A DNA stretch of 64,000 nt from Candidatus Sericytochromatia bacterium (GCA_044356335.1 JBIKWL010000007.1:271-64270), one strand, 5' to 3'. Positions 153 through 19,109 are shown, counted from the stretch's first letter. Made by a program: numbers and translations. The notes: generated by a model from the letters alone, not told the origin.

Positions 153-1523
153 TTGGAATTTATCCTCCAGTCTTCGCAAAAATATGTGGGGGAGGTTCTC
201 AATCTGGCCTCTTCACATCAGACAAACCAGACCATTGAAAATTACTGGAAACATCAAACCTACCAAAATTTTAATCAAACCTCTTTGGCAGGAAATCTGA
301 TGGACTCAAATCCGGTCCAAAGTAAAATAATGCTCGAAAATGTATTAAAGCAAGCCCCCCAAAATCACAGAGCGTTGCGTTTTTTATCTTTGGTTTATTT
401 AAATGAAAACAAAGTTGAAGAAGCGATTCAATTGGCCAAAGAGGCCCTTCAACTTAACCCAGAATATGATAGCGTGGTCTCTCAATTGGGGGATATTTAT
501 TACAAACAAAAAAATTATCACGAAGCACTCAAGTATTATCATCAAGCCCACATCATGGATCCAAATTCGCTGGAGTATCTTGATAATACACTCCATGCTT
601 TAGATCAACTTGAACCGATTGAAGCTGATTATAGCTCGTTTCCCTTGGTGCTCCGAATGAGGAATCTTTGGTCAGAAAATGCAAATTCCCACTTAATGTT
701 AGGCAATTTACTCACATATCAAGGTTTGTATGAAAAAGCTGAATCTGAATACCAAGCAGCTATCAGATTGAATCCTGTTGAGGCCTTTAATTACCAACAG
801 TTAGGGCTCATGTATGAACAGCAATCAAAGATCGATTTGGCTTTAGAAACCTACACAACAGGCATTAATTTAAACGCACAAAATCAAACATTGCTGTTTT
901 ACCGCTCCAATATCTACTATTTCTTGAATAAATACCAGGAAGCAATCACAGACTTAGATCAACTTATCGGCCTAGATGAAAAAAATGAATACTATTATTA
1001 TCGACGGGCAAAGGCCCACAGAGTCTTAGGAAATTATTCAGATGCCTTGAAAGATTTAAATCAAGCAATCTCACTCAATTCCAATGATGTCGATTTTTTT
1101 ACAGAAAGATCTTCTAACTTATTAAATTTGAAAAATTATGCTGAGTCCATTCAGGATGCAAAAAAGGCCTTGAAAATGGAGCCCACCAACACATCGGCCT
1201 GGTTTAACATCGCTTATGCTCAGTCGGAACTCAATGAATTGGATGCCAGTTTAATCAGCTACAACACCCTGTTAGACCTTGATCCTACATATGCAAGTGC
1301 CTATAACAATCGCGGGGTGATACATGAGAATAAAGGCCTAACTCGGAATGCCATGACAGACTACGAGCAGGCCATTCGCTTTGCACCAGAATATGGCATG
1401 TATTATAGCAACCGAGGAAATATCTACCGCAAATGGGAAAACTGCGAAAAAGCCAAAGCTGATTTTGTCAAAGCCTGTGAATTGGGGTATTCAGAGGCCT
1501 GTGATGCCAGCTGTGATGAATAA
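153..1523 (+). CDS. TPR-repeat protein with Cys-rich C-terminal tail (..KAKADFVKACELGYSEACDASCDE)
   Basis: Long ORF. Multiple 34-aa TPR-like repeats (A/Y/L periodicity, 'AIQLAKEALQLNP', 'YNNRG'). C-terminal tail shared with ORF 21254..22321. Confidence 0.7.
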   Translation: MEFILQSSQKYVGEVLNLASSHQTNQTIENYWKHQTYQNFNQTSLAGNLMDSNPVQSKIMLENVLKQAPQNHRALRFLSLVYLNENKVEEAIQLAKEALQLNPEYDSVVSQLGDIYYKQKNYHEALKYYHQAHIMDPNSLEYLDNTLHALDQLEPIEADYSSFPLVLRMRNLWSENANSHLMLGNLLTYQGLYEKAESEYQAAIRLNPVEAFNYQQLGLMYEQQSKIDLALETYTTGINLNAQNQTLLFYRSNIYYFLNKYQEAITDLDQLIGLDEKNEYYYYRRAKAHRVLGNYSDALKDLNQAISLNSNDVDFFTERSSNLLNLKNYAESIQDAKKALKMEPTNTSAWFNIAYAQSELNELDASLISYNTLLDLDPTYASAYNNRGVIHENKGLTRNAMTDYEQAIRFAPEYGMYYSNRGNIYRKWENCEKAKADFVKACELGYSEACDASCDE

Positions 1524-1550
1524 ACTGATTGAATAAAAAAGGAAAAAAAC

Positions 1551-1961
1551 ATGGGATTCAATTCAACCAAAATGGGCGGGCTTGTTTTATTTTCGGTCTT
1601 GTGTTTGCTTTCAAATGCAGCTCAGGCAGATCTGATGAACAAAATCTATAATAAAGGCTATCATCACTACAGTGAATCAGACTTTCAACAACTCTGGCGA
1701 AAGTACGATTATTTGTTTGATGGGGATAAAGAAAAAATTTGTTATGCCTTCGTTTTAGAACGCAATGAAATTTTTGCACGCCATGGTCGCTATTTTAATT
1801 CTCTGGTGATCAGAGCTTATTTCAATGATCTCGACTGGTACAGTCCAGACGGTGGTTTTTCAGAAAATAGACTCAACAGCATTGAGAAAAAAAACTCAAG
1901 TAAGTTTATGCGTTTCGAACAGCGCAAAGGGTGTAACCGTTATTGGAATAAATGGCTTTAA
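1551..1961 (+). CDS. Small secreted YARHG-domain protein
   Basis: N-terminal signal peptide (LVLFSVLCLLSNAAQA). 'IFARHGRYFNS...DWYSPD' matches the YARHG domain signature. RBS-like AAAAGGAAAAAA sits upstream. Confidence 0.6.
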   Translation: MGFNSTKMGGLVLFSVLCLLSNAAQADLMNKIYNKGYHHYSESDFQQLWRKYDYLFDGDKEKICYAFVLERNEIFARHGRYFNSLVIRAYFNDLDWYSPDGGFSENRLNSIEKKNSSKFMRFEQRKGCNRYWNKWL

Positions 1962-3503
1962 ATGTCTCAGATTGCGATTGCCCGCTCTTTATACTTAAGT
2001 TTTTTGTCAATTGCGTCAACCCTTGCGCTGATAACACTGAGTGTGAATCAAATTGAATCTGAACAGGTATGTCTACAAAACAAGGCCCAAAAGGCTTCGA
2101 CTCAAGAAAATCTGCCTGAGCGCATACAAGCAGATTTCAGACTTCAGGCGAGTCTCAACTATCTCGTTCAAAAATGGCAACTTCAGCAAGCTGGAATTGC
2201 GCTGATAGACTTTCAAACCGGAGCGATTGCCTTCTGGAATAAAGACAAGCCCTACGTTTTAGGTTCACTGATTGAATTGCCGCTCTTGGAGCAGGCATCT
2301 ACCCAGCCCTTGCCTCAAAACAGCAACGCCCGCATCGATCCCTTCAACTTTTTTCATGAATCTGAAGCCCAGGCCAAAACCCTGGCTGAGTCACCGACTC
2401 AATTGAAGATAATGGCTTTAAATCAGACCTTGCGTAAACGTGGCTTTAAAAATACTTTTCTGGCCCATTTGCCTGGCTCAGAGATCAAGTCTTTAAGTGT
2501 AAATTCAACAGGGGCCCGTGATATGGGCTTGCTCATTCATAAATTAGGATCTCTGCCCCAGCAGCAACAGGCCTCCATCAAACGTCAGGGTACGTTTATT
2601 TCTGCCCTTGATAATGGCAGAAAAGGGTATCATTATCTGAGTTTTAAACCCGCTGAAATGAACTATGCTTTGCTTGTCTTAAATCAAAACACAACTGTCT
2701 CAAAATTTCAAAATTCAATTCAGGGTTTTGAAAAAGAGTTGAAAGAATGGGTTTCACTCTTTCAGCTGAAACCCAAATCCGATGAACGGGTAACAGGCAT
2801 TTATCTCAATGATGAACATTTCTCAGGAAAAGTCGCTTTCACCTTTGACGATGGGCCGGGTCAAGAGACGCTCAATATTTTAGACCTGCTCAAACAATAC
2901 AAAATTAAAGCCACGTTTTTTATTACAGGCCAGCGTTTATTCACATCTCAAAACAAAATCGACCAAAGCGCAGCTTTCATTCTCAAACGGATCGTATCTG
3001 AGGGCCATACATTGGGGAACCACGGTTTTCAACATCTCGACCTCAGCCAGTCGGAGATACTCAAACAGCCAGAAAAAATTGCCGAAGAATTTGAACAAAC
3101 AGAAAGAGGTATTCGGCTCGCGCTCGGCTATTTATACCCGCTGCATTTTGTGCGGCCCCCTTATGGAGAGCGGGGTGTGAATCGAAATTTGGGTGTTAAT
3201 GGACTTAAACAAGCGGGCAGAGTCGACGCATATTTACAGGCCAAAAAGCAGGCCTTAATTTTGTGGCAGTCTGATTCCCTCGACTGGGAGGGCAATGCAG
3301 GCAACATTCAAATCGCCTCCTCAACCCAACTGATTCTTTCTCAGATCAGGGCAAGCCAAGGCGGAGTGGTTTTATTCCATGATATCTATCCCTATACAGT
3401 AACGCTTTTGCGCCAGCTTTTACCCGAATTAAAAAAACACCCTGAATTTCAATCGGTTTCTTTATCCGAATTACTGCTTAAAAAATACCGGCCTGAATCC
3501 TGA
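1962..3503 (+). CDS. Beta-lactamase-like N-domain fused to polysaccharide deacetylase (NodB/CE4) domain
   Basis: C-terminal 'VAFTFDDGPGQETLNILDLLKQYKIKATFFITGQ' plus a 'GNHGFQH' His motif typical of CE4 deacetylases. The N-terminal region is paralogous to ORF 10196..11287 ('IDxxTG...SLxxLPxxL') but with SLIE in place of the SxxK motif. The ATG overlaps the upstream stop. Confidence 0.7.
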   Translation: MSQIAIARSLYLSFLSIASTLALITLSVNQIESEQVCLQNKAQKASTQENLPERIQADFRLQASLNYLVQKWQLQQAGIALIDFQTGAIAFWNKDKPYVLGSLIELPLLEQASTQPLPQNSNARIDPFNFFHESEAQAKTLAESPTQLKIMALNQTLRKRGFKNTFLAHLPGSEIKSLSVNSTGARDMGLLIHKLGSLPQQQQASIKRQGTFISALDNGRKGYHYLSFKPAEMNYALLVLNQNTTVSKFQNSIQGFEKELKEWVSLFQLKPKSDERVTGIYLNDEHFSGKVAFTFDDGPGQETLNILDLLKQYKIKATFFITGQRLFTSQNKIDQSAAFILKRIVSEGHTLGNHGFQHLDLSQSEILKQPEKIAEEFEQTERGIRLALGYLYPLHFVRPPYGERGVNRNLGVNGLKQAGRVDAYLQAKKQALILWQSDSLDWEGNAGNIQIASSTQLILSQIRASQGGVVLFHDIYPYTVTLLRQLLPELKKHPEFQSVSLSELLLKKYRPES

Positions 3504-3517
3504 GCATTTTAAGCCGT

Positions 3518-5102
3518 TTACTGATTTGAAATAATCACAGGGGTTCCAATTTTAAGTAATTTGAAAACCAGTTCGACATCTGAATTGCGCATGCGAATAC
3601 AGCCATCTGAAACTGGCTTGCCAATCAATTGAGGCACATCAGTCCCATGTAAACCAATTGTTACACCTGTGCGAAAGTGACCCACATTTAAAGCCATCCA
3701 CCTGCTCCCCAAAGGATTTTTGGGATGTTTAGGCGGATAATAGCCATGACGCCCTGAATAGGAGGGGTTTTCATCTTTTGAAACTATCCGAAATTTTCCA
3801 ACGGGTGTGCTCACGCTGTATCGCGCTGTGGAAACAGGAACCGTCAAAATCACTTTATCCCCATCTTTTAAAGTCAGCCGTTGATTTTTTTTGCTGATAT
3901 AGACCACGGCTTTAGAAGATAGAACGGGCAAGGGCGTCGCTGTTGGTTTTGGCGTAGGTAGGGGTGTCGGCGTGGGCTGCGAGGGAAAACTGCTGGGAAT
4001 ACCATCAAGATCAAAAATTTCATCCAGGGTTGCCTTCTCTTGCTGTTCTGAGTGCAAAAAAGGACAACTCAGATAGGAATCCCATTCTGGATCCTTGTCT
4101 AAATCAGAAAACAAGAATAATTCCTGGGAATCACAACGAAGTAAGGGAAAGTAGGTTTGCAAGCCAATCGGGGCACGTTTTGCCATTGGAGCAGGCAAAA
4201 AGGACTGTCGTTTTGGAGGCGGATCCGCTTTGGTGGGGGGAGCCACGGGGGTATTGAGAAAGGCCCAGAGCGCTTTTCTATGGGCTTTCCAGGCCTCAGG
4301 GCCTGATTGACGCGTGGTTTCTAAGGTAACGACTGGGATACCCAGTTCGGTTCCATAATAGGTACCAAAAGATCCTGGGGTGGGGTAGCCAATACTTCCT
4401 GTCGCTTTTAAGCGGTTTTCTTTCTGCATGGCCTGTGCAATATGCAAAGCCGGTCCATCAAAATTATTGACTGCCAAAGGGGAGTGAATACTCAGAATTT
4501 TGACTTTCTCTCTTTTGCCTGTTTCCAGATAGGGCTTGATCAATTCACTCACAATTCTTGATTCGGGTTCAGAAAGCGCATTGGGACCGGCATAATAACG
4601 GGTGCCTTTATTTTGCCCTTGAATAAAATTTTTCGTGGGAAAATTTCTGTTCAAATCAACGCCGATGTTATTGACCCTGGTTTTTTTGAAGGTGCCGTCG
4701 GGATTCACCAAGGGCATGCAAAAGATTGTTTTATTGTTATATTCATTTGGTTTTTGAACGAGTTCTAACATGAGTTGTCGAAGAAGGTGTTCCCCTTGGG
4801 GTTCATCACCATGAAAATTGCCAAAAAGAAAGACATACTCATCAGTTCCCTGTCCAAATTTGTAAATTTCAATCTCTTTGCCTTTCAAGCTCATTAAGGG
4901 AGATTTTGGTTGATTTGGCAGGGCAATGAGTTGAAATGGTTTAAGCGGTGAAACTGCTGAGCCAGCTGCTCCCAAAGAGGGCGAGACAGCCGGTACCGGT
5001 GACAATTCGGTAACTTTGGGAGCGGCTAAACTTTGACCCCCAAAGATCAAAACGGGCAACAAAAATCCGCTCAAAATCAGCGAATGGTTTAACTTAAACA
5101 TG
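3518..5102 (-). CDS. Secreted M14-family (MpaA-like, HGDE motif) peptidase fused to C-terminal L,D-transpeptidase (YkuD) domain
   Basis: The likely start is the internal Met (MFKLNHSLILSGFLLPVLIFG signal peptide, GGAG RBS 8 nt upstream); the ORF track extends it to 5149. 'FLFGNFHGDEPQGEHLL' is an HxxE zinc motif. A Pro/Thr linker 'PTPTPLPTPKPTATPLP' follows. The C-terminal 'HGTDVP...SDGCIRMRNSDV' is the LDT catalytic His/Cys motif. Confidence 0.65.
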
Positions 5103-5121
5103 TTCTGTTCTCCGGCATGAA

Positions 5122-5793
5122 TTATCGATAGGTGGTAAAACTGGAGCAATTATCAGAGCAAAGCTCGACGTAGTCTGGCTGTTCTTCACGCAAGACTTTC
5201 CATGAACCATTGTATCGCGTAAGATACAAATATTTGATTCCCCGATCTACATAGGTATCTGATTTATAAATTTGATCAAAGACGATCACTGCACTGCCAT
5301 TGTTGAGAATTTCATACCCGTAGCGTCCATCCAGAATTTCAATGTCAATCCAATTTTTCATTTTTCCTTTGGCCAATTTGTCATTCATCCAACCCGACAA
5401 ACCCATGCCTTTATAAGAAGCGTAAAAATTGGGATGATAAAAGGTGCGGTAGCTACTGACGCTACTATAAGTGGCTGTTCCTTCCCAAGCACTGACCCAG
5501 TCTCTTAGAAAGCCACTCAGTTCAGATTCGTAACCACTGTTATTGTTACTGCTGTTTAAACCACTTGTTTTCACTCGGCTGAGCACATCATTGACATAAT
5601 TATTTACTCTTTGTCGCGAAGCTGGATTGTAAGCACGACCTCTGTTGCGATTTCCCCTTTGCGTAAAACTCCGCCGACCATTGCTGACCCTATCATTAAA
5701 TTTTTTTGCATTGATATCTACTGCCATTGCGGGCAATTCACTCATCAATACCAAAGAAGAACACAACAGAATGAGTTGGAAAAAACGAAACAT
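5122..5793 (-). CDS. Secreted hypothetical protein, possible NTF2-like fold
   Basis: Signal peptide (LILLCSSLVLMSELPAMA). No catalytic motifs recognised. The C-terminal beta-rich segment resembles NTF2/SnoaL-like folds. Confidence 0.45.
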   Translation of the reverse strand: MFRFFQLILLCSSLVLMSELPAMAVDINAKKFNDRVSNGRRSFTQRGNRNRGRAYNPASRQRVNNYVNDVLSRVKTSGLNSSNNNSGYESELSGFLRDWVSAWEGTATYSSVSSYRTFYHPNFYASYKGMGLSGWMNDKLAKGKMKNWIDIEILDGRYGYEILNNGSAVIVFDQIYKSDTYVDRGIKYLYLTRYNGSWKVLREEQPDYVELCSDNCSSFTTYR

Positions 5794-5809
5794 ATTTATT
5801 AGACCCCTT

Positions 5810-7510
5810 TCAGTTCAGACGTTCTAAATTTTTTTTATAAAGATCAGTGGGAAACAAAGTTATTGCTGTTTTTAATAAGCTGATTGCTTTTTCTTTTTTT
5901 GAGTTTCTCCAAGCGTAGGCGACAGAATTAAGTAAGTCAGCCAAAATTTCTTTTTGTTGTTGATCGAGTTGGTTTTTGCGATTGGGAGAATATTTCAACG
6001 CCTGCTCAACATTGTCTAAACATTCCTGAAATTTTTCCTTGTCACGCCATTCTCCAGCCCGATTTATAAAAATATTAATCAGATTTTTTCGCGCTTCATT
6101 TTGTTTTGGATCTTTATCTAAAACCTGTTGAAAAGTTTCTATCGAGGCATTGTGGTGACCCGATGCATAGAGTTTATCTGCTTTTATAAGCAACGCTTTA
6201 ATCGCTGCTTGGGAAAAATTCAGAGTAATAGATTTTTCAAGGCTATTTTGGCCTCTTTTAAGTGTTAATTTTTCTTTATATGTATCAAAATTCTGAAGAC
6301 TGATTTCAAGCGTGTAATCCCCTGATCTGAAAACAACTTCTTCACCTGTTTTTAATGGTTTATCGCCCAATTTAATTTTGGCATTGATCGGATGGCTGTT
6401 GATTTTGACTGTGACGTGTGCTTGTTTTTCTTGATAATCCCAATAAATCATGCCGGTTCCCCCGAGCAACATCAAAGCCAGAAAACCACCCATCAGATAG
6501 ACAGGCAGCTTCATTTTTTTTGTTTCTTGGATGGGGGCTTCATTCCGCAATTTTAATTGACTGGTTTCGAGTAAATCTGTTGTTTGCGGTAATTTACCAG
6601 ATCCATATGAGGCTATTTCAGTTAAGGGCTTGGTATCGCGCCGCATCGCAAGGATTAATTCTCGGGCAGTTTGATAGCGCTGTTCCGGCGATTTGGTCAG
6701 CAGTTTTAAGACAATCCCCCGACATTCAGGGCTGAGGTCAGGTTTGAGCAACTTGGGGTCAGGAGGCGCTTCTTGAATATGCTTTAAGGCAACTGCAATT
6801 TCACTTTCACCTTGAAAGGGAAGTTCCCCAGTCAGCATCTGAAACATCAAAACGCCTAAGGAATAAAGATCAGAACGCTCATCCGCTTTTTTTGCATCCT
6901 GGGCCTGTTCTGGAGACATATACAGCGCTGTTCCCATTTGAGTTCCGGTCTGGGTCAAATGGCTTGCTCCCAAGAGGTTTTTCGCAATCCCAAAATCGAG
7001 TAAATAGGCGTGGGCAAAGCGATCCAGCATAATATTCGCGGGTTTGATATCGCGGTGAACAACCCCCCGGCTGTGGGCATATTCCAGGGCGCGGGTTACT
7101 TGGGCCAAAATATCCAAGACCATTTCTTCAGGTAAAGCCCCTTCATCATGAATCAATTCAGACAAAGAACGGCCTTCAATTAATTTCATCGTGAAAAAGA
7201 TGCGTTCAGGTTCCTGAACAATTCGGTAGATCGGAATAATATGGGCATGTTCTAACTGAGCCGCTCTGCGTGCTTCAGCCAAGAATCGCAAAACAAAATC
7301 TGGATTGTGGCAGAGTTCAGGCTTTAAGAGTTTAAGTGCCTCTTCGCGCTCCAAATCAAGATTTGTGACCCGGTAAACCTCTCCCATGCCACCCGCTTGC
7401 AAAAAGCCTTCTACGCGATACCCAGAGAGTTGCTCATGAAGCTTGAGTTGGTGCCGCATCGCTAATGTCCCAGTATAAAAGCCATGATCGCTTTTCCATT
7501 GCTGTTCCAA
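5810..7510 (-). CDS. Hanks-type Ser/Thr protein kinase, single TM, C-terminal TPR-like domain
   Basis: 'LQAGGMGEVYRV' is the Gly loop; 'HRDIKPANIML', 'DFGIAK' and 'MSPEQ' are also present. A TM segment 'LMGGFLALMLLGGTGMIY' follows. The alternative start at 7459 (MRHQLK..) would abut rather than overlap the upstream peptidase gene. Confidence 0.8.
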   Translation of the reverse strand: MEQQWKSDHGFYTGTLAMRHQLKLHEQLSGYRVEGFLQAGGMGEVYRVTNLDLEREEALKLLKPELCHNPDFVLRFLAEARRAAQLEHAHIIPIYRIVQEPERIFFTMKLIEGRSLSELIHDEGALPEEMVLDILAQVTRALEYAHSRGVVHRDIKPANIMLDRFAHAYLLDFGIAKNLLGASHLTQTGTQMGTALYMSPEQAQDAKKADERSDLYSLGVLMFQMLTGELPFQGESEIAVALKHIQEAPPDPKLLKPDLSPECRGIVLKLLTKSPEQRYQTARELILAMRRDTKPLTEIASYGSGKLPQTTDLLETSQLKLRNEAPIQETKKMKLPVYLMGGFLALMLLGGTGMIYWDYQEKQAHVTVKINSHPINAKIKLGDKPLKTGEEVVFRSGDYTLEISLQNFDTYKEKLTLKRGQNSLEKSITLNFSQAAIKALLIKADKLYASGHHNASIETFQQVLDKDPKQNEARKNLINIFINRAGEWRDKEKFQECLDNVEQALKYSPNRKNQLDQQQKEILADLLNSVAYAWRNSKKEKAISLLKTAITLFPTDLYKKNLERLN

Positions 7511-8526
7511 GCGGCAGGTCCAGCTTGATCTGCCGTTTCCAAAGTCACAAGGGGAATTCCTCTTTCCTGGCCATAATAGGTGCCAAAAGAGCCTGGTGTG
7601 GGATACCCAATTTCACCTTTTGCTGGTAAGCCATTGTATTGACTCATGAGTTTGGCCCACGCTTCTGAAGCGGCACCATCATAATTATTCATCGCCAAGG
7701 GGGCGTGGATCGACAAAATCCGTGTTTCCCCAAGCTGAATGATCCGATCTACCGTCCTCTGTATGGCCTGGCTTTCGGGTTCGGAGAGTGGACTTTTACC
7801 TGAATAATAGCGCGTGCCTTTTTTATTGCCAGGGATAAAATTTCGGGTGGGAAAGTTTCGATTCAAATCCACACCGGCCCCATTGGGGCGGGTTCCTCTG
7901 GCTAAGCCATCAGGGTTTACGATCGGAATCAGGTAGACCGTTTGGTCTGTATAGAGTTTCGGAGACTTATCCAAAGTTGATTGGACTTGCTGCATGATAT
8001 AAGCGATCGGAAGCTCATCTCCATGAAATGAACCCAATACAATAACCTGTTCCCCGTTGCCAGAACCATATTGGTAGAGTTTTATCGGGCGACCCTCTCT
8101 GCTTGTTCCAATCTCTTTTGATAATTTCTTTGGCGCAATCTTTGGCGCAATCGGTTGGATTTTCTGTTTTGGAGAATGGCCGGGGCTTGTCGCTTCGAGA
8201 GAGGATTGAGCTTGGGGGGCCTCGGTTGCCTCTGGCGTAGGTGAATCGGTTTGATCTGGGGGTTGATTATCGGGCTGCTCAGGGGGTTGAGGTGAGTTCG
8301 ATTCGAATCCGTCACTCTGTTCAGATTCGTGATCGGCACTCCCCAGTACAATTGTGCTACTTTCCTGACTGCTCGGCATGCTGGACGGTTGCTGAGTTGC
8401 TGAATCATTCGCAACACTCCCAATTTCCAGTTGATTGGCAGTGTTCAAACGCGACACCCCAAAATAGGAAAGAACCATCAGGCCAGCAGCAAGAGTCAAA
8501 ACGATAGGAAGTGATTTATTGTTCAT
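7462..8526 (-). CDS. M14-family (MpaA-like) zinc peptidase with Pro/Gln-rich N-terminal low-complexity region
   Basis: 'VIVLGSFHGDELP' is an HxxE motif. It is paralogous to the N-domain of 3518..5102 ('NRNFPT', 'YPTPGSFGTYYG' and 'TLET' are shared). TM/signal at the N-terminus. Confidence 0.6.
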   Translation of the reverse strand: MNNKSLPIVLTLAAGLMVLSYFGVSRLNTANQLEIGSVANDSATQQPSSMPSSQESSTIVLGSADHESEQSDGFESNSPQPPEQPDNQPPDQTDSPTPEATEAPQAQSSLEATSPGHSPKQKIQPIAPKIAPKKLSKEIGTSREGRPIKLYQYGSGNGEQVIVLGSFHGDELPIAYIMQQVQSTLDKSPKLYTDQTVYLIPIVNPDGLARGTRPNGAGVDLNRNFPTRNFIPGNKKGTRYYSGKSPLSEPESQAIQRTVDRIIQLGETRILSIHAPLAMNNYDGAASEAWAKLMSQYNGLPAKGEIGYPTPGSFGTYYGQERGIPLVTLETADQAGPAAWNSNGKAIMAFILGH

Positions 8527-8617
8527 ACTTTTCTCTCAAATTGGATAATGAACCCATTTATATTAACATATTTGTTTCTATGACTTAAGGTTTAATCAAT
8601 AGGAATTCTGGACGCAC

Positions 8618-9388
8618 TCATTTGGGAACTTTGGGCTGAGCGGGCATTTTCTTTATCGCCTGAATTCTGAGCTGCGGTGAATCATGGGTACTTAAAAAAT
8701 CGCCAAGACTCTCAGCATTTGAATGATTGGAAAATGGCTTTATCAAGTTTTCTAGCAAACGAATTGCATCATTTCGGGAGTATCCAGCTTTCTCCATCAA
8801 AGTGACTCCATAAATATCAGCTTTTCTCTCCTGTTCTTTGTTAAATGGAAGCCGAGAGAGGCTATAAACCAACTGAACCCCCTCAGCCAGCACAGGATCA
8901 ACTTTTGCAACGCGGGCACTGTATTGAACGCGGTGTGCACAGTGCAAAAGCTCTTGATGAGCCAGTTCATGCCCAAGCAGTGCAGCGATCAATCCTTCGG
9001 ATTGCAGGTATTTTAAAATTCCCTGATGAATCAAAATTTTTCCGCCAACAAAGGTAAAGGCGTTCGGCGTAGTGTCGTCAATCAAAAAAAGTTCATAAGC
9101 CAAATCCTGTTGTTTTAAATACGGCTTCAGCCGCTGAAGAACACGTACCCAACGCAGATCATTCAAGACACGAATCGATTTTTCCTGCTTATATGTTTGA
9201 AGAATCTGAGCGCCTATTTGGTTTTGTTCGGCTTGGCTCAAGCCTGTCAGATGCAAAATTTCGTCATTCATACGCTCCGTATATTCAAGACCCTCTTTAA
9301 ATAGGTCAAAGGGGTCAGGCAAATTTTGGTTGCTTGCCGATAGGGGGTAATACATAAAAAATATCAAGCTGGCCCAAATCTTAAACAC
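8618..9388 (-). CDS. M48-family zinc metallopeptidase (HExxH)
   Basis: Signal peptide. 'LLGHELAHQELLH' is an HExxH motif. Size and layout resemble BepA/YfgC-like peptidase domains. Confidence 0.55.
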   Translation of the reverse strand: MFKIWASLIFFMYYPLSASNQNLPDPFDLFKEGLEYTERMNDEILHLTGLSQAEQNQIGAQILQTYKQEKSIRVLNDLRWVRVLQRLKPYLKQQDLAYELFLIDDTTPNAFTFVGGKILIHQGILKYLQSEGLIAALLGHELAHQELLHCAHRVQYSARVAKVDPVLAEGVQLVYSLSRLPFNKEQERKADIYGVTLMEKAGYSRNDAIRLLENLIKPFSNHSNAESLGDFLSTHDSPQLRIQAIKKMPAQPKVPK

Positions 9389-9457
9389 GGAGTCCCCGAC
9401 CTCCCTCTGAATTCATGATCGAGTGGTATTAACAATATTTTAACTTAAATCAACTAA

Positions 9458-9473
9458 TTGTCAATATTGACAA
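9458..9473. promoter_or_regulatory. Perfect 16-bp palindrome TTGTCAATATTGACAA in divergent promoter region; half-site copy TTGACAAT at 9517..9524
   Basis: Read directly from the sequence in the 168-bp AT-rich intergenic region between the divergent M48 peptidase gene and the LDT/kinase operon. Confidence 0.4.
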
Positions 9474-9556
9474 TATAGTTTACAAATGTTAATTTTTTAA
9501 TGGGCTTGAATTTTAATTGACAATTTGCCCACACGAAATCCTGAAAGGATGCCAGC

Positions 9557-10192
9557 ATGAAATTGAATCTTAAACGTGTTGTGTGCTTGGGTATGATGAT
9601 GTCTGGTTTTTGGCAAGCCTCTCCCGTTCTCGCATTTAGTCAGGAAGATATTTGGAAAACGATTCGACCCAGCGTCGAAAAATTAAGCTCAGAATTTGGC
9701 TTAAAACAAAACCAATACGCATTAATTGTTGTAGTGCCTCATCAAAAAATGTATTTGATTCAAGGCCAAAAAATAATTAAATCTTATCGGATCTCAACGG
9801 CCAGCGCTGGAATTGGATCGATAGAAAACAGCGATATGACTCCCCCAGGAACACACCGAATCAAAGAAAAAATTGGCGCAGGTCATAAAATGGGGGCTAT
9901 CTTTAAAGGCCGTAAATTTACCGGTCAACACAGCCCCATTTATAAAGATCTGACAGACCTTTCAGAAGATTTAATAACCACCCGTATTCTATGGCTAGAT
10001 GGACAGGAAAATGGCGTAAACAGAGGTGGAATCCGAGATTCTCATCGCCGTTACATTTACATTCATGGAACACCAGAAGAAGGCCAATTGGGCAAACCCA
10101 ACTCAAAAGGCTGTATTCGGATGGGAAATAAAGAAGTAATTGAACTCTTTCAAATGATCAGCAGTGGAACTTTAGTTGAAATTCAAGAGTGA
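9557..10192 (+). CDS. L,D-transpeptidase (YkuD domain), secreted
   Basis: Signal peptide. 'YIYIHGTPEEGQLGKPNSKGCIRMGNKEV' is the His/Cys catalytic motif of the YkuD family. Confidence 0.75.
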   Translation: MKLNLKRVVCLGMMMSGFWQASPVLAFSQEDIWKTIRPSVEKLSSEFGLKQNQYALIVVVPHQKMYLIQGQKIIKSYRISTASAGIGSIENSDMTPPGTHRIKEKIGAGHKMGAIFKGRKFTGQHSPIYKDLTDLSEDLITTRILWLDGQENGVNRGGIRDSHRRYIYIHGTPEEGQLGKPNSKGCIRMGNKEVIELFQMISSGTLVEIQE

Positions 10193-10195
10193 GCA

Positions 10196-11287
10196 ATGAG
10201 TAAACGTCCCCACCTTGCGAATAGATTAATATTTCCAAGTCGAGCCTTTTCTGGCTGTTTATTGTCTTTATCGCTCATGGGTTTCTATTTGCTTGTTCAA
10301 ATCCCTCAAGATCCTGGCTTCGCGCTGACCCAGACATTTTTCGGGCTCAAAAAGGAGCCTTTAAAAGCTGTTCTTAATACATCCCCTCCGCCATCGCCCA
10401 AAAAAATCAATCTTCAAAACCCCAAAATTATTTGGCAATTGCAAAGAAAAATTTTACTTGACCAACAATTGGCGCGATTGGCAGAGCAATTTAACTTGGT
10501 CTCAGCAGGAATTATGTTGTTGGATTTAAACACAGGAAACTATGGTGGATACCAAGAAAAAAAAGTCTTCGAATCTGCAAGCTTGGTTAAACTCCCTATT
10601 ATGCTGGGAGGCATGCGTGAAATCTACCAGGGAAAGGCAAAAATTGAAGATATTATTCAAATTGATAGCCAAAATATGACAACAACCGCATGGTTTGCCA
10701 AAGATCCCTTTCCTGAATTAACCCCAGGAAAACAGGTGCGTTTAGAGCATTTATTTGAAGTGATGATCAGTCGCAGTGACAATATTGCAACCAATACGCT
10801 TTTAGATATTTTTAATCGTCAATCTATCAATGACTATATTCATAACCTGAGTTTTAGGCAAACAGAAGTGGCCTACAAAATTACGGGTTCAGATCATTTA
10901 TTTTGGGATGGCGACTACGTGAGTGGCATCAATCAATCAAGTGCATGGGATATGGGGCGAATGCTAAGCCTTGTGGTTAGAGAAAAAATACTGGATTCAG
11001 AAAGCTGCATTTTGATGATGGAATGGCTTAATCATCAACAGGATAAAACCAAGCTGGCAGCAAAATTACCTGCCAAAACTTATATCGCTCATAAAACGGG
11101 TGAAAATAGCCGTGGAACTCATGATGTTGCAATCATCAAATCACCCAATCATCAGTATACTTTGGCAGTCTTAACTCCTTATCCGGCCGATGAAGCGCTT
11201 TATCAGAGAATTTCTAATTTATCCCGCTCAATTTATGATTTGATTCATGCTCGACCCTCGTTGTTCCAGGAAATATACGCCTCATGA
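10196..11287 (+). CDS. Class A beta-lactamase-like serine hydrolase (SxxK, SDN, KTG motifs)
   Basis: 'ASLVKLP' is SxxK, 'SRSDNIATN' is SDN and 'AHKTGEN' is KTG. N-terminal TM/signal. A 3-nt gap separates it from the upstream LDT. Confidence 0.65.
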   Translation: MSKRPHLANRLIFPSRAFSGCLLSLSLMGFYLLVQIPQDPGFALTQTFFGLKKEPLKAVLNTSPPPSPKKINLQNPKIIWQLQRKILLDQQLARLAEQFNLVSAGIMLLDLNTGNYGGYQEKKVFESASLVKLPIMLGGMREIYQGKAKIEDIIQIDSQNMTTTAWFAKDPFPELTPGKQVRLEHLFEVMISRSDNIATNTLLDIFNRQSINDYIHNLSFRQTEVAYKITGSDHLFWDGDYVSGINQSSAWDMGRMLSLVVREKILDSESCILMMEWLNHQQDKTKLAAKLPAKTYIAHKTGENSRGTHDVAIIKSPNHQYTLAVLTPYPADEALYQRISNLSRSIYDLIHARPSLFQEIYAS

Positions 11288-12663
11288 GTCTCCTGGAACA
11301 GGGTGAAGTAATTGGCATTTACAAAATTGTGCGCCATTTGGCTTCTGGAGGAATGGGAGACCTTTATGAGGTTTATAATTCTCAATTAGATCGCAATGAG
11401 GCCATGAAAGTTTTAAAATCCGATTTATCTGAGCAAAAAGATTTTGTTCTCCGCTTTACGGGCGAAGCACGCAAGCACGCACGTCTCGATCATCCAAACA
11501 TCGTGCCTGTTTATCAGATCAGTGACCCAGAAACACGCCCAGTTTATTTCACAATGAAATTGATTCAGGGTCAAACGCTGAAAGATTGGTTTAAAAACCA
11601 ATTGCCACTTTCAGAAGATATAGCTGCCCAGCTTATGTTGCAAATAACAGATGCGTTGGTATATGCCCATAGTTTGGGCATTATTCACAGAGACCTCAAA
11701 CCCGCCAATCTTATGTTAGATCAAGATCACCGCTTGTATCTGATGGATTTTGGCATCGCCAGAGTTGCTCAGGATACCCATCTGACCATGACAGGAACCC
11801 AGATGGGAACAGCCGCTTATATGAGTCCAGAACAAGCCCAAGATGCAAAATCTGTTGATGCCCGCTCAGATCTGTATTCCCTGGGTGTCATCTTCTTTGA
11901 AATGCTGACTGGCCAAACCCCTTTTCAAAGCGATAGCGCCATCGCATTGGCCCTAAAACATGTGCAAGACCCTCTGCCTGATCCCAAAAAACTGAATCCT
12001 TCTTTATCAAAAGAAACCATTCAATTGGTAAGTTTTTTGTTGGAAAAAGCGCCTTCAAAACGACCCGATAGTTCACAATCATTTCGAAATTTGCTTAAAC
12101 ACCGGTTTTCTTTGCAGACGGGTCAACTTGATCTCAATCAAACAATGATTCAGAAACCGATGTTTTCAACCACAAAAGCTGAATCAAAGCATCTTGCTGC
12201 CCCAATTTGGGTTGGCAGTCTGTTATTACTTTTGGGAATCGGGGTGAGCCTGATATTTTGGGGTGCATCGCAAAATCAGACACAGGAGGTCAGTCATTCT
12301 CCTTCGCCAACAGCTCCTCTCCAACAAGAACAAATACCCCCAGTTCAAGCCCCTCTACCCACCGCAGTCTCGACTCCAAGGATTGAAAAATCACCGATTC
12401 ATGGCTTATATCCCCATACCAGTTATCAGCCTGTTACAGAAGAAGAATTAATTCCGATGAATTGCAATGACCTGGCGATCATGCGAAATGAAATTTATGC
12501 CCGTCATGGCCGCCAATTTTCGACACCCAGTTTTCGGGAGTATTTTAAATCTCAAGATTGGTATCAAGTGGACCCAAATTACAGCGACAACCGTGTCACT
12601 GCTCTGGAAAAACGCAATGCCAGTCTGATTCTCAATCATGAAGAACAAAATGCCTGTTTTTAG
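11284..12663 (+). CDS. Hanks-type Ser/Thr protein kinase with TM segment and C-terminal extracytoplasmic YARHG domain
   Basis: 'LASGGMGDLYEV', 'HRDLKPANLML', 'DFGIAR' and 'MSPEQ' mark the kinase. TM segment 'IWVGSLLLLLGIGVSLIFW'. The C-terminus 'MRNEIYARHGRQFSTPSFREYFKSQDWYQ' is a YARHG domain. An ATGA overlap joins it to the upstream gene. Confidence 0.8.
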   Translation: MSLLEQGEVIGIYKIVRHLASGGMGDLYEVYNSQLDRNEAMKVLKSDLSEQKDFVLRFTGEARKHARLDHPNIVPVYQISDPETRPVYFTMKLIQGQTLKDWFKNQLPLSEDIAAQLMLQITDALVYAHSLGIIHRDLKPANLMLDQDHRLYLMDFGIARVAQDTHLTMTGTQMGTAAYMSPEQAQDAKSVDARSDLYSLGVIFFEMLTGQTPFQSDSAIALALKHVQDPLPDPKKLNPSLSKETIQLVSFLLEKAPSKRPDSSQSFRNLLKHRFSLQTGQLDLNQTMIQKPMFSTTKAESKHLAAPIWVGSLLLLLGIGVSLIFWGASQNQTQEVSHSPSPTAPLQQEQIPPVQAPLPTAVSTPRIEKSPIHGLYPHTSYQPVTEEELIPMNCNDLAIMRNEIYARHGRQFSTPSFREYFKSQDWYQVDPNYSDNRVTALEKRNASLILNHEEQNACF

Positions 12664-12676
12664 TTAAAGGTTAATT

Positions 12677-13585
12677 ATGAGTAAAAATATGAATTTAATA
12701 TTATTAATCGGCTCAAGTCTCATTATTTCAGCGGGTTTGGGTTATGGTGTTTATCAACTCATGCCGTTTGGGGCTGATCGCCGCTCAGAAACGAGTTCAC
12801 ACGAATCTCTTAACAACGTTCTTGGATCTGTTCCCTCTCCAACCCCTACAGAGCCCAATATTATCACTGTGGGAGATAATGACAATCTAAATCAGCCAGT
12901 AGAATCAACACCATCGGCCACTGTTTTTAAGTCAGCGCTTGTTTCATCAATTAAAACCGCTGTTCCAGAAGAATCTAATTTTAAACAATTTCCGTTTAGT
13001 TGTGATCAATTTGAAAACCAAATAATTCAAGACCCCAAGTATCAACGTGATCTCGCGATCTGGAAACCCCAAATTACGTCATACAGTTCTCGCCATTATG
13101 GTGAACCCACCTGGAAACTTGATCCCAGTGTCATTGTGCTTCACTATACAGTGGGAACCTCTTTCCCTTGGAATTTGGTAAATACGCTAAATTTTGCTGG
13201 AGAAACCCCAGGTTTATCCGTTCACTATGTGGTGGATGGACCCAAAATTTGGCGACTATTGCCAGATAATGTCCGATCACGGGGTGCCTATGGCATTAAC
13301 CACCGGGCTATCAATATTGAAATGATTGCGCTCGAAGAAAAAGATCTTTTTCAAAATCGAAAACCAACTTTGGATAAATCAGCAGAATTGGTCGCGTGCC
13401 TGATGCAGTGGCATAAAATACCAATAAAAAAAATCTATTCACATGAAGACGTTAGCAAAATGAATCCCAAAATTGTTCCTGAAGTTTTTGATTTGGTCCA
13501 ATCTGGGGCCTATGGCAAATCGGATCCGGGTGAATTGAATATGGCGTATGTACTCAATAAACTGAAACTCTGGGGCCTCAATTAA
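12677..13585 (+). CDS. N-acetylmuramoyl-L-alanine amidase, Amidase_2 (AmpD/PGRP-like) domain, membrane-anchored
   Basis: N-terminal TM. 'VIVLHYTVGT...SVHYVVDG...AYGINHRAINIEM' is typical of Amidase_2. Confidence 0.6.
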   Translation: MSKNMNLILLIGSSLIISAGLGYGVYQLMPFGADRRSETSSHESLNNVLGSVPSPTPTEPNIITVGDNDNLNQPVESTPSATVFKSALVSSIKTAVPEESNFKQFPFSCDQFENQIIQDPKYQRDLAIWKPQITSYSSRHYGEPTWKLDPSVIVLHYTVGTSFPWNLVNTLNFAGETPGLSVHYVVDGPKIWRLLPDNVRSRGAYGINHRAINIEMIALEEKDLFQNRKPTLDKSAELVACLMQWHKIPIKKIYSHEDVSKMNPKIVPEVFDLVQSGAYGKSDPGELNMAYVLNKLKLWGLN

Positions 13586-14991: not shown

Positions 14992-14995
14992 AAGT

Positions 14996-18609: not shown

Positions 18610-18692
18610 CGTTTAAATATATATTCAAGGAGACAATATACTTCAGCAAGTAAACAAACAAACTATTATTTTTAGCAAAATAAACTAATTAG

Positions 18693-19109
18693 ATGAGGTT
18701 TTATTTCTGCGTGAATTTTAAAAATATATATTTATTCATATTTTCGCTTGTTTTTTCTGTAAATCTTAATTTTTCCGCTTTGGCCTACGACTATGAGCAA
18801 GTTGAAAGAGTTCGATTTGCCAGGGGAAAATCAGGAACCGTACTTCAAGGTTCTGTTGTGCGCCTGACAAGAAACATCTACGTCTTGGGAGCGGCAAAAG
18901 GCCAAATGATGACCGTTCGCATCCGTTCGTTAGAAAATAATGCAGTGATACAAATTATGGATCCCAAAGGCAGAACACTTAAAGGTGGAGGAGAAAATGA
19001 AGATATCACTTATTGGAAAGGACGCTTACCCTTAAACGGCGATTATCGAATCGCCGTAGCGGCCACCCGGGGAAATGCAAGTTATGAGTTGGAAGTGTCG
19101 ATCCGTTAA
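18693..19109 (+). CDS. Small secreted hypothetical protein
   Basis: Signal-peptide-like N-terminus. No motif recognised. Confidence 0.4.
   Translation: MRFYFCVNFKNIYLFIFSLVFSVNLNFSALAYDYEQVERVRFARGKSGTVLQGSVVRLTRNIYVLGAAKGQMMTVRIRSLENNAVIQIMDPKGRTLKGGGENEDITYWKGRLPLNGDYRIAVAATRGNASYELEVSIR

Follow-up and report, generated by a model that had tools for sequence, protein, structure and literature searches.

Organisation of the locus

The window (the whole stretch of DNA analysed, 64,000 nt from a contig of Candidatus Sericytochromatia bacterium, GCA_044356335.1) contains a cluster of about 18.5 kb, which is organised in three operons and includes both YARHG genes (Table 1). This cluster encodes exported peptidoglycan enzymes, two Hanks-type kinases, a protein with two FHA domains (hereafter referred to as 2xFHA), a PP2C phosphatase and an FHA-ABC transporter. 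Its enzymes all have N-terminal signals or anchors and have retained their catalytic motifs.

Table 1. Genes of the cluster, with positions in the window.
Feature	Position	Strand	Basis and remarks
TPR-repeat protein, first gene of the TPR-YARHG-CE4 operon	153..1523	+	Pfam TPR
Small secreted YARHG protein, 136 aa	1551..1961	+	Pfam match, predicted signal peptide, AlphaFold model
CE4 (NodB-type) polysaccharide/peptidoglycan deacetylase, exported, 513 aa	1962..3503	+	Polysacc_deac_1, E=8.9e-25
M14 carboxypeptidase fused to YkuD L,D-transpeptidase, exported	3518..5149	-	Pfam; N-terminal hydrophobic segment
Secreted Cds6_C (NTF2-like) protein	5122..5793	-	Pfam
Second Hanks-type kinase: Pkinase, one TM, extracytoplasmic PEGA and TPR	5810..7510	-	Pfam
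M14 carboxypeptidase, exported	7462..8526	-	Pfam; HGDE motif
M48 metallopeptidase, opens the minus-strand operon	8618..9388	-	Pfam; HELAH motif
YkuD L,D-transpeptidase, exported, opens the seven-gene plus-strand operon	9557..10192	+	Pfam; gene spacing
Class-A beta-lactamase-fold penicillin-recognising protein, PBP-A-like	10196..11287	+	Beta-lactamase2, E=5e-44
Receptor Hanks kinase with YARHG ectodomain, 459 aa	11284..12663	+	Pfam, TM prediction, AlphaFold model
Amidase_2 (N-acetylmuramoyl-L-alanine amidase), membrane-anchored	12677..13585	+	Pfam; N-terminal anchor
Membrane protein, two FHA domains on the cytoplasmic side (phospho-Thr readers)	13585..14991	+	Pfam FHA, Yop-YscD_cpl
PP2C Ser/Thr phosphatase with TM and C-terminal extension	14996..16636	+	Pfam
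FHA-domain ABC-2 transporter, closes the operon	16633..18609	+	Precomputed Pfam: FHA, ABC_tran, ABC2_membrane

The TPR gene extends upstream beyond the window: the gene call for the source contig gives it 947 aa, and only its 3' part lies within the window. It is followed, after 27 nt, by the small YARHG gene, the stop codon of which abuts the start of the CE4 gene (0 nt gap). The CE4 protein displays motifs MT1-MT5. Its N-terminal region, of about 280 amino acids, is an orphan, with 30% identity over 56 residues to the neighbouring PBP-A-like protein, PDB matches at E=0.48 and S-L-I-E at the SxxK position, such that the catalytic lysine is missing. No full-length homologue of this protein was found, except for a 93% variant. 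In the minus-strand operon, the M14-YkuD fusion protein has the HGDE zinc motif and the HGT of the YkuD active site, and the stretch with the active-site cysteine (GCIRM) was read off the translation. The second kinase has a TM helix at residues 337-355 and recognisable catalytic motifs. The minus strand has a promoter-like site at 9464-9437, assigned by consensus match only (11/12 positions).

The plus-strand operon has the order YkuD, PBP-A-like, kinase-YARHG, Amidase_2, 2xFHA, PP2C and FHA-ABC, with spacings of 3, -4, 13, -1, 4 and -4 nt; the Amidase_2 gene is the one that starts 13 nt past the kinase gene. The PBP-A-like product carries SLVK, SDN and KTG motifs and matches Tll2115 (PDB 2j9o/2j7v; E about 8e-12), and the amidase matches PDB 6ssc (E=0.004). 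FHA and Yop-YscD_cpl each match two stretches of the 2xFHA protein, and the phosphatase has DGMGG and GGTDN motifs and a TM helix at residues 279-305. The original prediction had placed both YARHG genes beside cell-wall enzymes. This holds for the CE4, YkuD, Beta-lactamase2 and Amidase_2 neighbours, whereas the beta-lactamase-like character attributed to the N-terminus of the CE4 protein is weak. The GC3 of the island is foreign, and a DarT/NADAR toxin-antitoxin pair and an SNase gene lie beyond the cluster.

The two YARHG proteins

Both ORFs proposed to encode YARHG proteins, one small and secreted and the other a kinase, were found at the given coordinates and with the motifs quoted for them. 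The YARHG signature reads IFARHGRYF..YF..DWY..IEKKN in the small protein and IYARHGRQF..YF..DWY..LEKRN in the kinase. Both exceeded the gathering cut-off of 27 bits for Pfam YARHG (PF13308), with the small protein matching at residues 64-122 (nt 1740-1916; E=1e-10, 41.9 bits) and the kinase at residues 376-453 (nt 12409-12642; E=2.9e-18, 66.1 bits). Aligned with each other, the segments show 36% identity over 89 residues (E=1e-20). Each of the domain alignments has its invariant columns (R, N, E, I, A, R, G, F, F, W, Y and N), which by definition include that alignment's own window sequence; the nearly invariant YARHG glutamate is also kept in both window sequences. A six-frame motif scan of the window revealed no further in-ORF copy, the two additional [FYW]ARHG matches falling in stop-interrupted frames. 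Judging from these sequence comparisons, the window carries two distant YARHG paralogues.

Structure prediction, also called for by the original prediction, yielded confident models of both domains as the helical fold of PDB 4g2a. The pLDDT was 90.4 for the small protein and 85.5 for the kinase, with values above 95 in the cores, and 4g2a was the sole significant Foldseek match for both models (rmsd 1.2-1.3 A, probability 1.00; overlap of 54-64 columns at 35-38% identity). The sequences of the two proteins also match the YARHG part of 4g2a, with E=1.8e-10 and 1.9e-4, respectively. The model of the small protein has two additional N-terminal helices relative to 4g2a.

The YARHG domain is predicted from sequence to be extracytoplasmic in both proteins. 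The hydrophobic N-terminal segment of the small protein ends in a predicted cleavage site, AQA|DL, giving a signal peptide of residues 1-26 (nt 1551-1628). In the kinase, the sole TM helix spans approximately residues 303-330 (nt 12190-12273). Lys and His flank this helix towards the kinase domain, positive charges are absent from its C-terminal flank, and a low-complexity linker stands between it and the YARHG domain. The Pkinase match covers residues 13-275 (nt 11320-12108; E=9.5e-51), and the catalytic motifs are intact (SGGMG at 21, AMK at 40-42, HRDLKPAN at 135, DFG at 155 and SPE at 181). These features identify it as a putative bitopic Hanks-type (eukaryote-like) Ser/Thr kinase with YARHG outside the membrane. 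A Pfam search found no PASTA domain in this protein. It is not a member of the PASTA kinases (PknB/PrkC/StkP type), though it may work in a similar manner.

The domain is flanked by a pair of cysteines in both cases (Cys64 and Cys128 in the small protein, Cys394 and Cys458 in the kinase). The small protein has, in addition, the WYSPD..SE.RL signature typical of the stand-alone group in the domain alignment. Comparison with the sister strain (L174) revealed no amino-acid change in residues 47-128 of the small protein, and four synonymous and no non-synonymous changes in the YARHG domain of the kinase. The pattern of substitution points to purifying selection on the YARHG cores of both genes.

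Recurrence of the cluster in other lineages

The gene content of the cluster recurs in two other lineages. Contig L004, from a bin labelled Cyanobacteria_JACYMC01, has all the gene families of both kinase operons, at 35-56% identity, and contig L006 (Armatimonadota) has 2xFHA, PP2C, kinase-Cds6_C, M14, M14-YkuD, kinase-YARHG and Amidase_3. The gene set defined from these two contigs (kinase-YARHG followed by a hydrolase, together with 2xFHA, PP2C, M14, YkuD and Cds6_C) is present in the window, L004 and L006, and partly in L015 and L035. The M14-YkuD fusion of the window is shared with L006, orthologues of 2xFHA occur in L004, L006 and L015, and those of FHA-ABC in L004, L025 and L035. Cds6_C, a separate secreted protein in the window, serves as a kinase ectodomain in other phyla (kinase-Cds6_C fusions in L006 and L015).

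Five kinase-YARHG loci have a downstream gene that can be read, and at four of them a wall hydrolase gene comes directly next, namely one for Amidase_2 (window and L004), Amidase_3 (L006) or M15_4 (L035). In L015, YARHG comes after PASTA in the kinase ectodomain, and an LD-carboxypeptidase is encoded two genes on. Among the kinase orthologues with long flanks, the closest (P0002, on L003) has an unrelated gene context.

YARHG genes and wall hydrolases

In many phyla, there are YARHG genes with a gene for a peptidoglycan hydrolase directly downstream. An M15 or amidase gene was present within 1.2 kb of YARHG in 24 of 80 loci from diverse genomes and farther away in none; the corresponding binomial value (7e-15) is not corrected for phylogeny and overstates independence, because the loci were picked by similarity to the kinase YARHG and many come from related Bacteroidota and Verrucomicrobiota. 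No hydrolase neighbour was detected in the other 56 loci. The commonest neighbours within two genes of YARHG were M15_4 (9/140) and Amidase_3 (4/140), both of which were missing from the corresponding top list for 140 control genes taken at these loci. Other stand-alone YARHG genes adjoin genes for a SPOR protein and a PEGA-Amidase_3 protein, and the fusion partners of the domain include M15_4, NlpC/P60, PG_binding_1 and PASTA. Two of 74 YARHG proteins in the present analysis carry a kinase. Neither the neighbour census nor the homologue search found CE4 as a recurrent neighbour of YARHG elsewhere. The new point is that both YARHG genes of the window lie directly upstream of a gene for a wall-cutting or wall-editing enzyme, and that this pairing recurs across phyla.

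Proposed function and alternative explanations

As far as gene order and domain content can tell, the most likely role of YARHG is to recognise peptidoglycan on behalf of the enzyme whose gene adjoins it. The feature recognised would lie near the stem peptide, because this is the sole trait common to the non-homologous partners Amidase_2, Amidase_3 and M15 peptidase. In the kinase, YARHG would take the role that PASTA has in PknB-type kinases, signalling to the cytoplasmic kinase what state the wall, or the amidase substrate, is in. By analogy, the kinase would phosphorylate targets that the FHA proteins and FHA-ABC transporter would then read, and PP2C would reset the signal. The small YARHG protein would be a separate wall-binding partner of the co-translated CE4 enzyme rather than a decoy for the kinase. 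Taken as a whole, this explanation, with YARHG reading peptidoglycan for the adjoining enzyme, the kinase as a wall sensor and the small protein as a CE4 partner, is the one we lean towards. A broader view, which we put forward tentatively, is that YARHG might be the recognition or sensing half of a widespread YARHG and wall-hydrolase cassette, in which the kinase fusion would form a PASTA-independent class of wall sensors and the stand-alone copy would be a detached recognition subunit of CE4. If so, YARHG kinases would govern a self-contained peptidoglycan-editing island equipped with a DD-peptidase, L,D-transpeptidases, carboxypeptidases, an amidase, a deacetylase and an FHA-ABC exporter. 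This island may be horizontally mobile and common to the lineage of the cyanobacterial bin and Armatimonadota.

The tight and often overlapping pairs of YARHG and hydrolase genes found across phyla would also be expected if YARHG were a protein-protein module that binds and regulates the adjoining hydrolase without binding peptidoglycan, like EnvC and NlpD (LytM-type amidase activators), and Das et al. proposed a catalytic partner for lpg2210. We nevertheless consider such a module unlikely. The partner folds (Amidase_2, Amidase_3, M15_4 and CE4) are unrelated, whereas the surface motif of YARHG is nearly invariant, and a common small ligand therefore fits better than four interfaces; moreover, YARHG is also fused to the wall-binding non-enzymes PASTA, PG_binding_1 and SH3. 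The ligand could alternatively be a hydrophobic envelope lipid or LPS (Das et al. 2013), with the kinase sensing the state of the outer membrane or its lipids. The open pocket of 4g2a is indeed lined with exposed hydrophobic residues (PMC3848476), and the operon encodes an ABC-2 exporter. YARHG is, however, common in monoderm Firmicutes, which have no LPS, its recurrent neighbours are stem-peptide-directed hydrolases rather than lipid enzymes, and it stands together with PASTA in a single ectodomain in L015, making a lipid ligand distinctly improbable. ABC-2 family transporters often move glycolipids or polysaccharides.

The original prediction had suggested that the secreted protein is a soluble decoy or co-receptor, which would bind the ligand of the kinase, or the kinase ectodomain itself, and tune kinase signalling. 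The two genes do lie within one low-GC island, and the pair of cysteines bracketing the domain is common to the small protein and the kinase clade (the window kinase and P0002-P0005) only, with none of the 12 remaining aligned YARHG domains having it. This pair could, however, reflect convergent stabilisation in an oxidising periplasm. The two domains are only 33-36% identical, the identity of the small domain to the kinase clade (32-33%) does not exceed that to unrelated stand-alone YARHG (28-41%), and it shares the WYSPD signature of the latter. The genes belong to different operons, 9.3 kb apart, with the small gene coupled to CE4. A second YARHG gene is absent from the syntenic contigs L004 and L006, and the homologue search found an orthologue of the small gene in the sister strain only. 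Furthermore, most YARHG proteins belong to the stand-alone class, members of which are mostly found without a kinase. There are parallels for separate sensors: in L025, a sensor-less Zn-ribbon kinase and FHA-ABC are surrounded by two YARHG proteins that are not kinases, and the Cds6_C sensor modules of this cluster type are either fused to kinases or encoded separately nearby. The cysteine pair and these fused or separate modules may leave room for a weak form of the idea, which we otherwise regard as very doubtful. The pairing of each YARHG gene with the enzyme gene directly downstream (CE4 for the small gene, Amidase_2 for the kinase) fits more of the data.

Finally, the kinase domains strongly match the PADLOC models PD-T4-6 and mad6, as they would in a phage-defence or conflict system built on Ser/Thr kinases, with the wall enzymes as effectors and YARHG as an invasion sensor. 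These matches span the generic kinase domain only, ending by about residue 319 of 459, those to mad3 and mad8 correspond to the generic ABC ATPase region, the YARHG and 2xFHA proteins match no defence model, and PADLOC returned no system-level match. The foreign GC3 of the island and the DarT/NADAR pair and SNase gene after the cluster would also suit defence, but the sister strain lacks DarT/NADAR, which therefore represents an independent insertion. Likewise, VWA, FHA, PP2C and kinase are combined in L015 and L035, but a VWA protein is absent from the window. Given that the exported enzymes form a coherent, housekeeping-type wall-editing kit, a defence role is highly improbable.

Comparison with known systems

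Neither YARHG architecture is new, both having been published in 2012. Secreted YARHG-only proteins were described as the majority class (174 of 290 stand-alone), and cyanobacterial kinase-TM-YARHG proteins of about 500 aa, such as UniProt A0ZHA2, were also reported (Coggill & Bateman 2012). The small protein resembles the former in having a signal peptide and a C-terminal YARHG, and the window kinase resembles the latter in size, in the lack of a signal peptide, in its single TM helix and in its C-terminal YARHG. A role connected with peptidoglycan had already been hypothesised from domain fusions (PMC3355149). Coggill & Bateman (2012) covered fusions only; operon context, the cysteine-bracketed subtype and adjacency to hydrolases are not in their paper. 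The only solved YARHG structure, that of lpg2210 from Legionella pneumophila (PDB 4g2a), has the helical fold common to the window domains, but it reads YAQYG instead of YARHG and carries a DUF4424 beta-sandwich at its N-terminus, whereas in the window YARHG is attached to a kinase or to nothing. Das et al. favoured a hydrophobic ligand (lipid or LPS) on the basis of the exposed hydrophobic residues in this structure (PMC3848476).

The window kinase and its surroundings can be compared with the PASTA kinases and their operon. Both have a bitopic Hanks kinase, the ectodomain of which is wall-related, along with FHA proteins, PP2C and peptidoglycan enzymes encoded in the operon. In the window, however, the partner enzymes are hydrolases, L,D-transpeptidases and a deacetylase instead of SEDS/bPBP synthases, the kinase is without PASTA, and the operon includes an FHA-ABC transporter. 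PASTA Hanks kinases include PknB, PrkC and StkP, and the actinobacterial operon is fhaA-fhaB-pstP-rodA-pbpA-pknA-pknB. Rv1747 of Mycobacterium tuberculosis is an FHA-domain ABC transporter regulated by the kinase PknF. The window transporter is, similarly, an exporter encoded with a Hanks kinase, a likeness of architecture and neighbourhood only, which suggests, by analogy, phospho-dependent control of export; unlike Rv1747, it sits in a wall-hydrolase cluster. The putative DD-peptidase encoded immediately upstream of the kinase resembles Tll2115/PBP-A, cyanobacterial DD-peptidases of the class-A beta-lactamase fold, and has conserved SxxK, SDN and KTG motifs.

Two YARHG domains sharing one predicted fold

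As the original prediction held, the window encodes YARHG twice: in a small secreted protein and at the C-terminus of a Hanks-type kinase (hereafter referred to as kinase 2). Both ORFs contained the motifs quoted for them. Pfam (gathering score of 27 bits for YARHG, PF13308) placed the domain at residues 64-122 of the small protein (41.9 bits, E=1e-10) and at residues 376-453 of kinase 2 (66.1 bits, E=2.9e-18), following a Pkinase domain (residues 13-275, E=9.5e-51). A six-frame motif scan of the 64 kb identified no third in-ORF copy, and two further matches to the bare motif lay in stop-interrupted frames. Sequence searches also aligned both proteins with the YARHG portion of lpg2210 (PDB 4g2a; E=1.8e-10 and 1.9e-4). 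AlphaFold models based on 20-sequence alignments were confident (pLDDT 90.4 and 85.5, cores >95) and all-helical, and 4g2a was the only meaningful match of either model in Foldseek searches of the PDB (rmsd 1.2-1.3 Å, probability 1.00). The N-terminus of the small protein is a hydrophobic stretch that closes with AQA|DL. In kinase 2 the only hydrophobic helix spans about residues 303-330; Lys and His flank it towards the kinase domain, and neither flanks it towards the C-terminus. The predicted topology of both proteins fits a location of YARHG outside the cytoplasm; both segments were assigned to the YARHG family, and the C-terminus of kinase 2 was not predicted to be cytoplasmic.

Pairwise alignment of the two segments gave 36% identity over 89 residues. 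The small protein was 32-33% identical to YARHG domains of the kinase clade, versus 28-41% for unrelated stand-alone YARHG domains, and contained the “WYSPD..SE.RL” signature of the latter. On sequence comparison, the two copies are distant paralogues. A recent duplication was rejected, because the identity between them was only 33-36%. A pair of cysteines, one located ten residues before RNEI[FY]AR and the other at the domain end, was common to the small protein, kinase 2 and P0002-P0005 (from the set comprising kinase 2 and its orthologues), and was found in 0/12 of the remaining aligned YARHG domains. Das et al. (PMC3848476) argued that the 4g2a fold would allow the first and last cysteines to pair in the YASKG subfamily, so a disulfide around each window domain is plausible, and would be consistent with an extracytoplasmic location. 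The pair may reflect common descent or convergence.

Organization and composition of the gene cluster

Gene spacing and Pfam families resolve the window's first 18.6 kb into three tightly packed operons (see table). The stop codon of the small YARHG gene abuts the start codon of the CE4 gene (TAAATG), and the intergenic gaps in operon (c) are, in order, 3, -4, 13, -1, 4 and -4 nt. Inspection of the sequences showed that every cluster enzyme has kept an N-terminal signal or anchor and its catalytic motifs, which are also intact in kinases 1 and 2. The LDT, beta-lactamase-like protein and Amidase_2 originally placed beside kinase 2 correspond to the YkuD, PBP-A-like and Amidase_2 genes of operon (c). 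The small YARHG gene had been reported to lie beside a beta-lactamase-like/CE4 fusion: the CE4 deacetylase does adjoin it, but the beta-lactamase-like assignment of the N-terminus was only weakly supported, and the SxxK lysine is absent. No homologues of these N-terminal ~280 aa, no YARHG-CE4 fusion and no conserved YARHG-CE4 pair were found beyond the sister strain (93% identity). A 56-residue stretch of the CE4 N-terminus resembles the SxxK region of the neighbouring PBP-A-like protein but has S-L-I-E at that motif; as a remnant of a beta-lactamase fold, should it be one, this N-terminus would be catalytically dead.

Features of the window considered in this analysis
Feature	Coordinates	Strand	Content
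Operon (a)	153-3503	+	TPR, small YARHG protein, CE4 deacetylase
Small YARHG protein	1551..1961	+	136 aa
CE4 protein	1962..3503	+	exported deacetylase
CE4 protein, N-terminal ~280 aa	1962-2810	+
Operon (b)	9388-3518	-	M48, M14, kinase 1 (Pkinase-TM-PEGA-TPR), Cds6_C, M14-YkuD
Cds6_C protein	5122-5793	-	NTF2-like
Kinase 1	5810-7510	-
Operon (c)	9557-18609	+	YkuD, PBP-A-like class-A beta-lactamase-fold protein, kinase 2, Amidase_2, TM-2xFHA, PP2C, FHA-ABC
Kinase 2	11284..12663	+	459 aa
Kinase 2 TM/juxtamembrane/linker	12139-12408	+	residues 286-375
138-aa ORF and NADAR/DarT pair	~18690-20601		between FHA-ABC and SNase genes
Region with the cluster genes	1-~22300		GC 0.38-0.49, GC3 0.34-0.45
Genes beyond the cluster	22400-64000		GC 0.50-0.57, GC3 0.58-0.71

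The housekeeping genes beyond about 22 kb, including those for an amino-acid permease, a 1421-aa NHL protein, RadA, Kef, GlmM and MetRS, differ from the cluster in composition, with a gradual shift over about 21-23.4 kb. Rfam, tRNA and repeat scans of the window revealed no island boundary markers (no tRNA or flanking repeats). The strong GC3 break marks the cluster region either as an island acquired by horizontal transfer or as part of an assembly chimera; the GC content of L004 (0.418), a contig with a similar cluster, matches that of the cluster and is compatible with both. Where the window carries the 138-aa ORF and DarTG-type NADAR/DarT toxin-antitoxin pair, the sister strain has only a 55-aa ORF (L175 9323-9683). 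As the pair is missing from that strain, it can be considered a strain-specific insertion outside the cluster.

Strain comparison and rarity of orthologues

Both YARHG loci are present in the sister strain, which comes from another sample (L174 and L175). The YARHG domain of kinase 2 displayed 0 non-synonymous and 4 synonymous differences between the strains, the catalytic domain 3 and 30, and the whole small protein 8 and 5, respectively. All eight substitutions in the small protein map to the signal peptide, residues 28 and 45, or the last few residues, with none in residues 47-128. The TM/juxtamembrane/linker segment of kinase 2 had 4 non-synonymous differences and 1 synonymous difference, counts too small for a claim of positive selection; the kinase and YARHG domains on either side are under strong constraint.

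In a full-length search of 1.84 billion representative proteins, the best matches of kinase 2 were dominated by multi-kinase giants, and orthologues (P0001, P0002, P0004 and P0005; 50-59% identical) could be identified only four times among the 150 best matches; this lineage is therefore very sparsely sampled. A metagenome scan with an alignment of five kinase orthologues matched no locus with YARHG or cluster genes; its best match (39%) covered the kinase domain, the IHRDLKPA pattern having drawn generic kinases. No close relative of the window was present among the matches listed in the genome scan with the YARHG alignment (best 47%). For the small protein, the sister strain provided the only orthologue, other matches sharing the domain alone.

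Conservation of the kinase-YARHG context

The context of kinase 2 was conserved in L004, in L006 and L035, and in L015. L004 (18 kb; assigned to a bin with the label Cyanobacteria_JACYMC01), whose kinase is 46% identical, carries genes for M48, 2xFHA, PP2C, FHA-ABC, kinase, kinase-YARHG, Amidase_2, YkuD, M14, Cds6_C, kinase, M14 and Beta-lactamase2, with 35-56% identity to the window proteins (tblastn). L006, an Armatimonadota MAG, encodes 2xFHA, PP2C, kinase, GH3, a kinase-Cds6_C fusion, M14, M14-YkuD, kinase-YARHG, Amidase_3 and kinase; L035 (Flavobacteriales) encodes M48, FHA-ABC, kinase, kinase-YARHG, M15_4 and three more kinases; and L015 (Armatimonadia) includes PP2C, 2xFHA, VWA, kinase-PASTA-YARHG, kinase-PASTA, LD-carboxypeptidase and kinase-PASTA-Cds6_C. 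A wall hydrolase gene lies immediately 3' of kinase-YARHG in 4/5 loci with a readable downstream gene, its family varying between loci (Amidase_2, Amidase_3 or M15_4); these different families at a fixed position constitute non-orthologous replacement. The close kinase orthologue P0002 (L003) has an unrelated gene context. The context of the small protein is not conserved beyond the sister strain, and other stand-alone YARHG genes adjoin a gene for a SPOR protein (L007) or a PEGA-Amidase_3 protein (L012).

In the window, L004 and L025 (8725-9510), Cds6_C is a separate secreted protein encoded next to a kinase, whereas it is fused to a kinase as its ectodomain in L006 (5961-7586) and follows PASTA in L015 (14723-16390). 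M14 and YkuD genes invariably come after it in the window, in L004 and in L006. This is a clear case of fission/fusion, tying the module to kinase sensing. In L025 (842-10237), a Blastocatellaceae MAG, two YARHG proteins that are not kinases (one of 298 aa, the other a 240-aa Zn-ribbon-TM-YARHG protein) flank an FHA-FHA-ABC transporter, a 433-aa Zn-ribbon kinase, an SH3_3 protein and a Cds6_C protein, possibly a split sensor/kinase arrangement. In five Verrucomicrobiota loci (L019, L029, L031, L043 and L058), an ABC-transporter gene matching the window FHA-ABC protein at 163-186 bits is located 0.7-2.5 kb downstream of the YARHG match.

Cell-wall hydrolase genes adjacent to YARHG

Species-representative genomes were scanned with the ectodomain alignment, yielding >600 stretches from many phyla, from which the best 80 loci were kept; this sample is skewed towards YARHG domains similar to that of kinase 2, and the loci are not phylogenetically independent. 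The commonest Pfam families within two genes of YARHG (n=140 ORFs) were Peptidase_M15_4 (9), DUF2306 (7), Amidase_3 (4) and Pkinase (3). As controls, 140 ORFs lying at least six genes from YARHG in the same loci were used, and none of the four families figured in their top list. Ranking second among neighbours, DUF2306 is predicted to be a membrane protein (L014-L054; e.g. L025 109-777). By tblastn, a hydrolase gene was detected no more than 1.2 kb from the YARHG domain in 24/80 loci (M15_4 in 16, Amidase_3 in seven, Amidase_2 in one), with none of these three families elsewhere in the locus in any of the 80 (binomial P = 7e-15, with ~26% of the sequence counted as near and the kinship of loci ignored). 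The hydrolase gene was the next gene downstream on the same strand in 19 loci, one gene further downstream in two, and upstream and divergent in three. The lineages concerned include Alpha- and Deltaproteobacteria, several Bacteroidota families, Clostridia, Heliobacterium, Armatimonadota, Zipacnadia and an actinobacterium. The window genes follow the same rule, kinase-YARHG preceding Amidase_2 and small YARHG preceding CE4.

Coggill & Bateman (2012, PMC3355149) introduced YARHG as “an extracellular domain in search of a function”, with 174/290 proteins YARHG-only, most with a signal peptide, and six Pkinase-TM-YARHG proteins, four of them cyanobacterial, ~500 aa long and without other domains; peptidoglycan binding was hypothesized. 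Das et al. (2013, PMC3848476), who solved 4g2a, proposed a pocket and a hydrophobic ligand near peptidoglycan, and reported “no clearly recurrent associations” in genomic context. The literature searched contained no experimental characterization of YARHG. Our own tally, covering 74 YARHG ORFs of species-representative genomes (YARHG match in 72, kinase in two, Zn-ribbon in four, and single fusions to M15_4, NlpC/P60, PG_binding_1 or PASTA) agrees with the published picture, and the window proteins are two more members of already-described architectures. The conserved cluster and the hydrolase-adjacency rule are absent from both dedicated papers. With them the peptidoglycan hypothesis gains its first evidence from gene neighbourhoods and becomes directly testable.

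Proposed role of YARHG

The observations bearing on function are a receptor kinase that looks active and carries YARHG on its outer side, co-operonic FHA, PP2C and FHA-ABC genes, exported wall enzymes, conserved synteny and the adjacency of YARHG and hydrolase genes. The partner enzymes are unrelated in fold but share a site of action at or beside the stem peptide, and the YARHG surface motif is nearly invariant; we therefore infer, as the simplest common denominator, that YARHG would bind a feature of peptidoglycan rather than each partner enzyme. In kinase 2, it would play the role of PASTA in PknB-type kinases, and the two domains occur in tandem in L015. Two phospho-Thr readers, namely the 2xFHA protein and the FHA-ABC transporter, would relay the kinase output, PP2C would reset it, and the small protein would be a separate wall-binding partner of the CE4 enzyme. 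The architecture of the FHA-ABC transporter presumably resembles that of Rv1747/PknF. Taken as a whole, this model lies just on the probable side.

Direct regulation of hydrolases by YARHG, as for EnvC/NlpD, would also match the adjacency, but the diversity of partner folds speaks against it; we consider it unlikely. Binding of a lipid or LPS would agree with the hydrophobic ligand proposed for 4g2a, but the stem-peptide enzymes that accompany YARHG speak against it, and it seems to us distinctly unlikely. The original suggestion that the small protein is a decoy or co-receptor of kinase 2 has in its favour the occurrence of both proteins in one cluster and their common cysteine pair; no second YARHG was found within L004 or L006, and we judge this role to be quite improbable. 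Least credible, and very improbable indeed, is a defence system: a toxin-antitoxin pair near the cluster would favour it, but the window has no vWA gene. The literature on “Cds6” and on vWA “ternary” conflict systems contains no description of this cluster.

If the adjacency rule holds, YARHG would be a second ectodomain type, besides PASTA, for cell-wall monitoring by Hanks-type kinases. The context yields concrete enzyme-partner pairs open to testing, and cultured carriers of YARHG and enzyme pairs include Heliobacterium chlorum DSM 3682 (L021, NZ_JACVHF010000004.1) and Paenimyroides tangerinum YIM 102701-2 (L085, NZ_RQVQ01000019.1).
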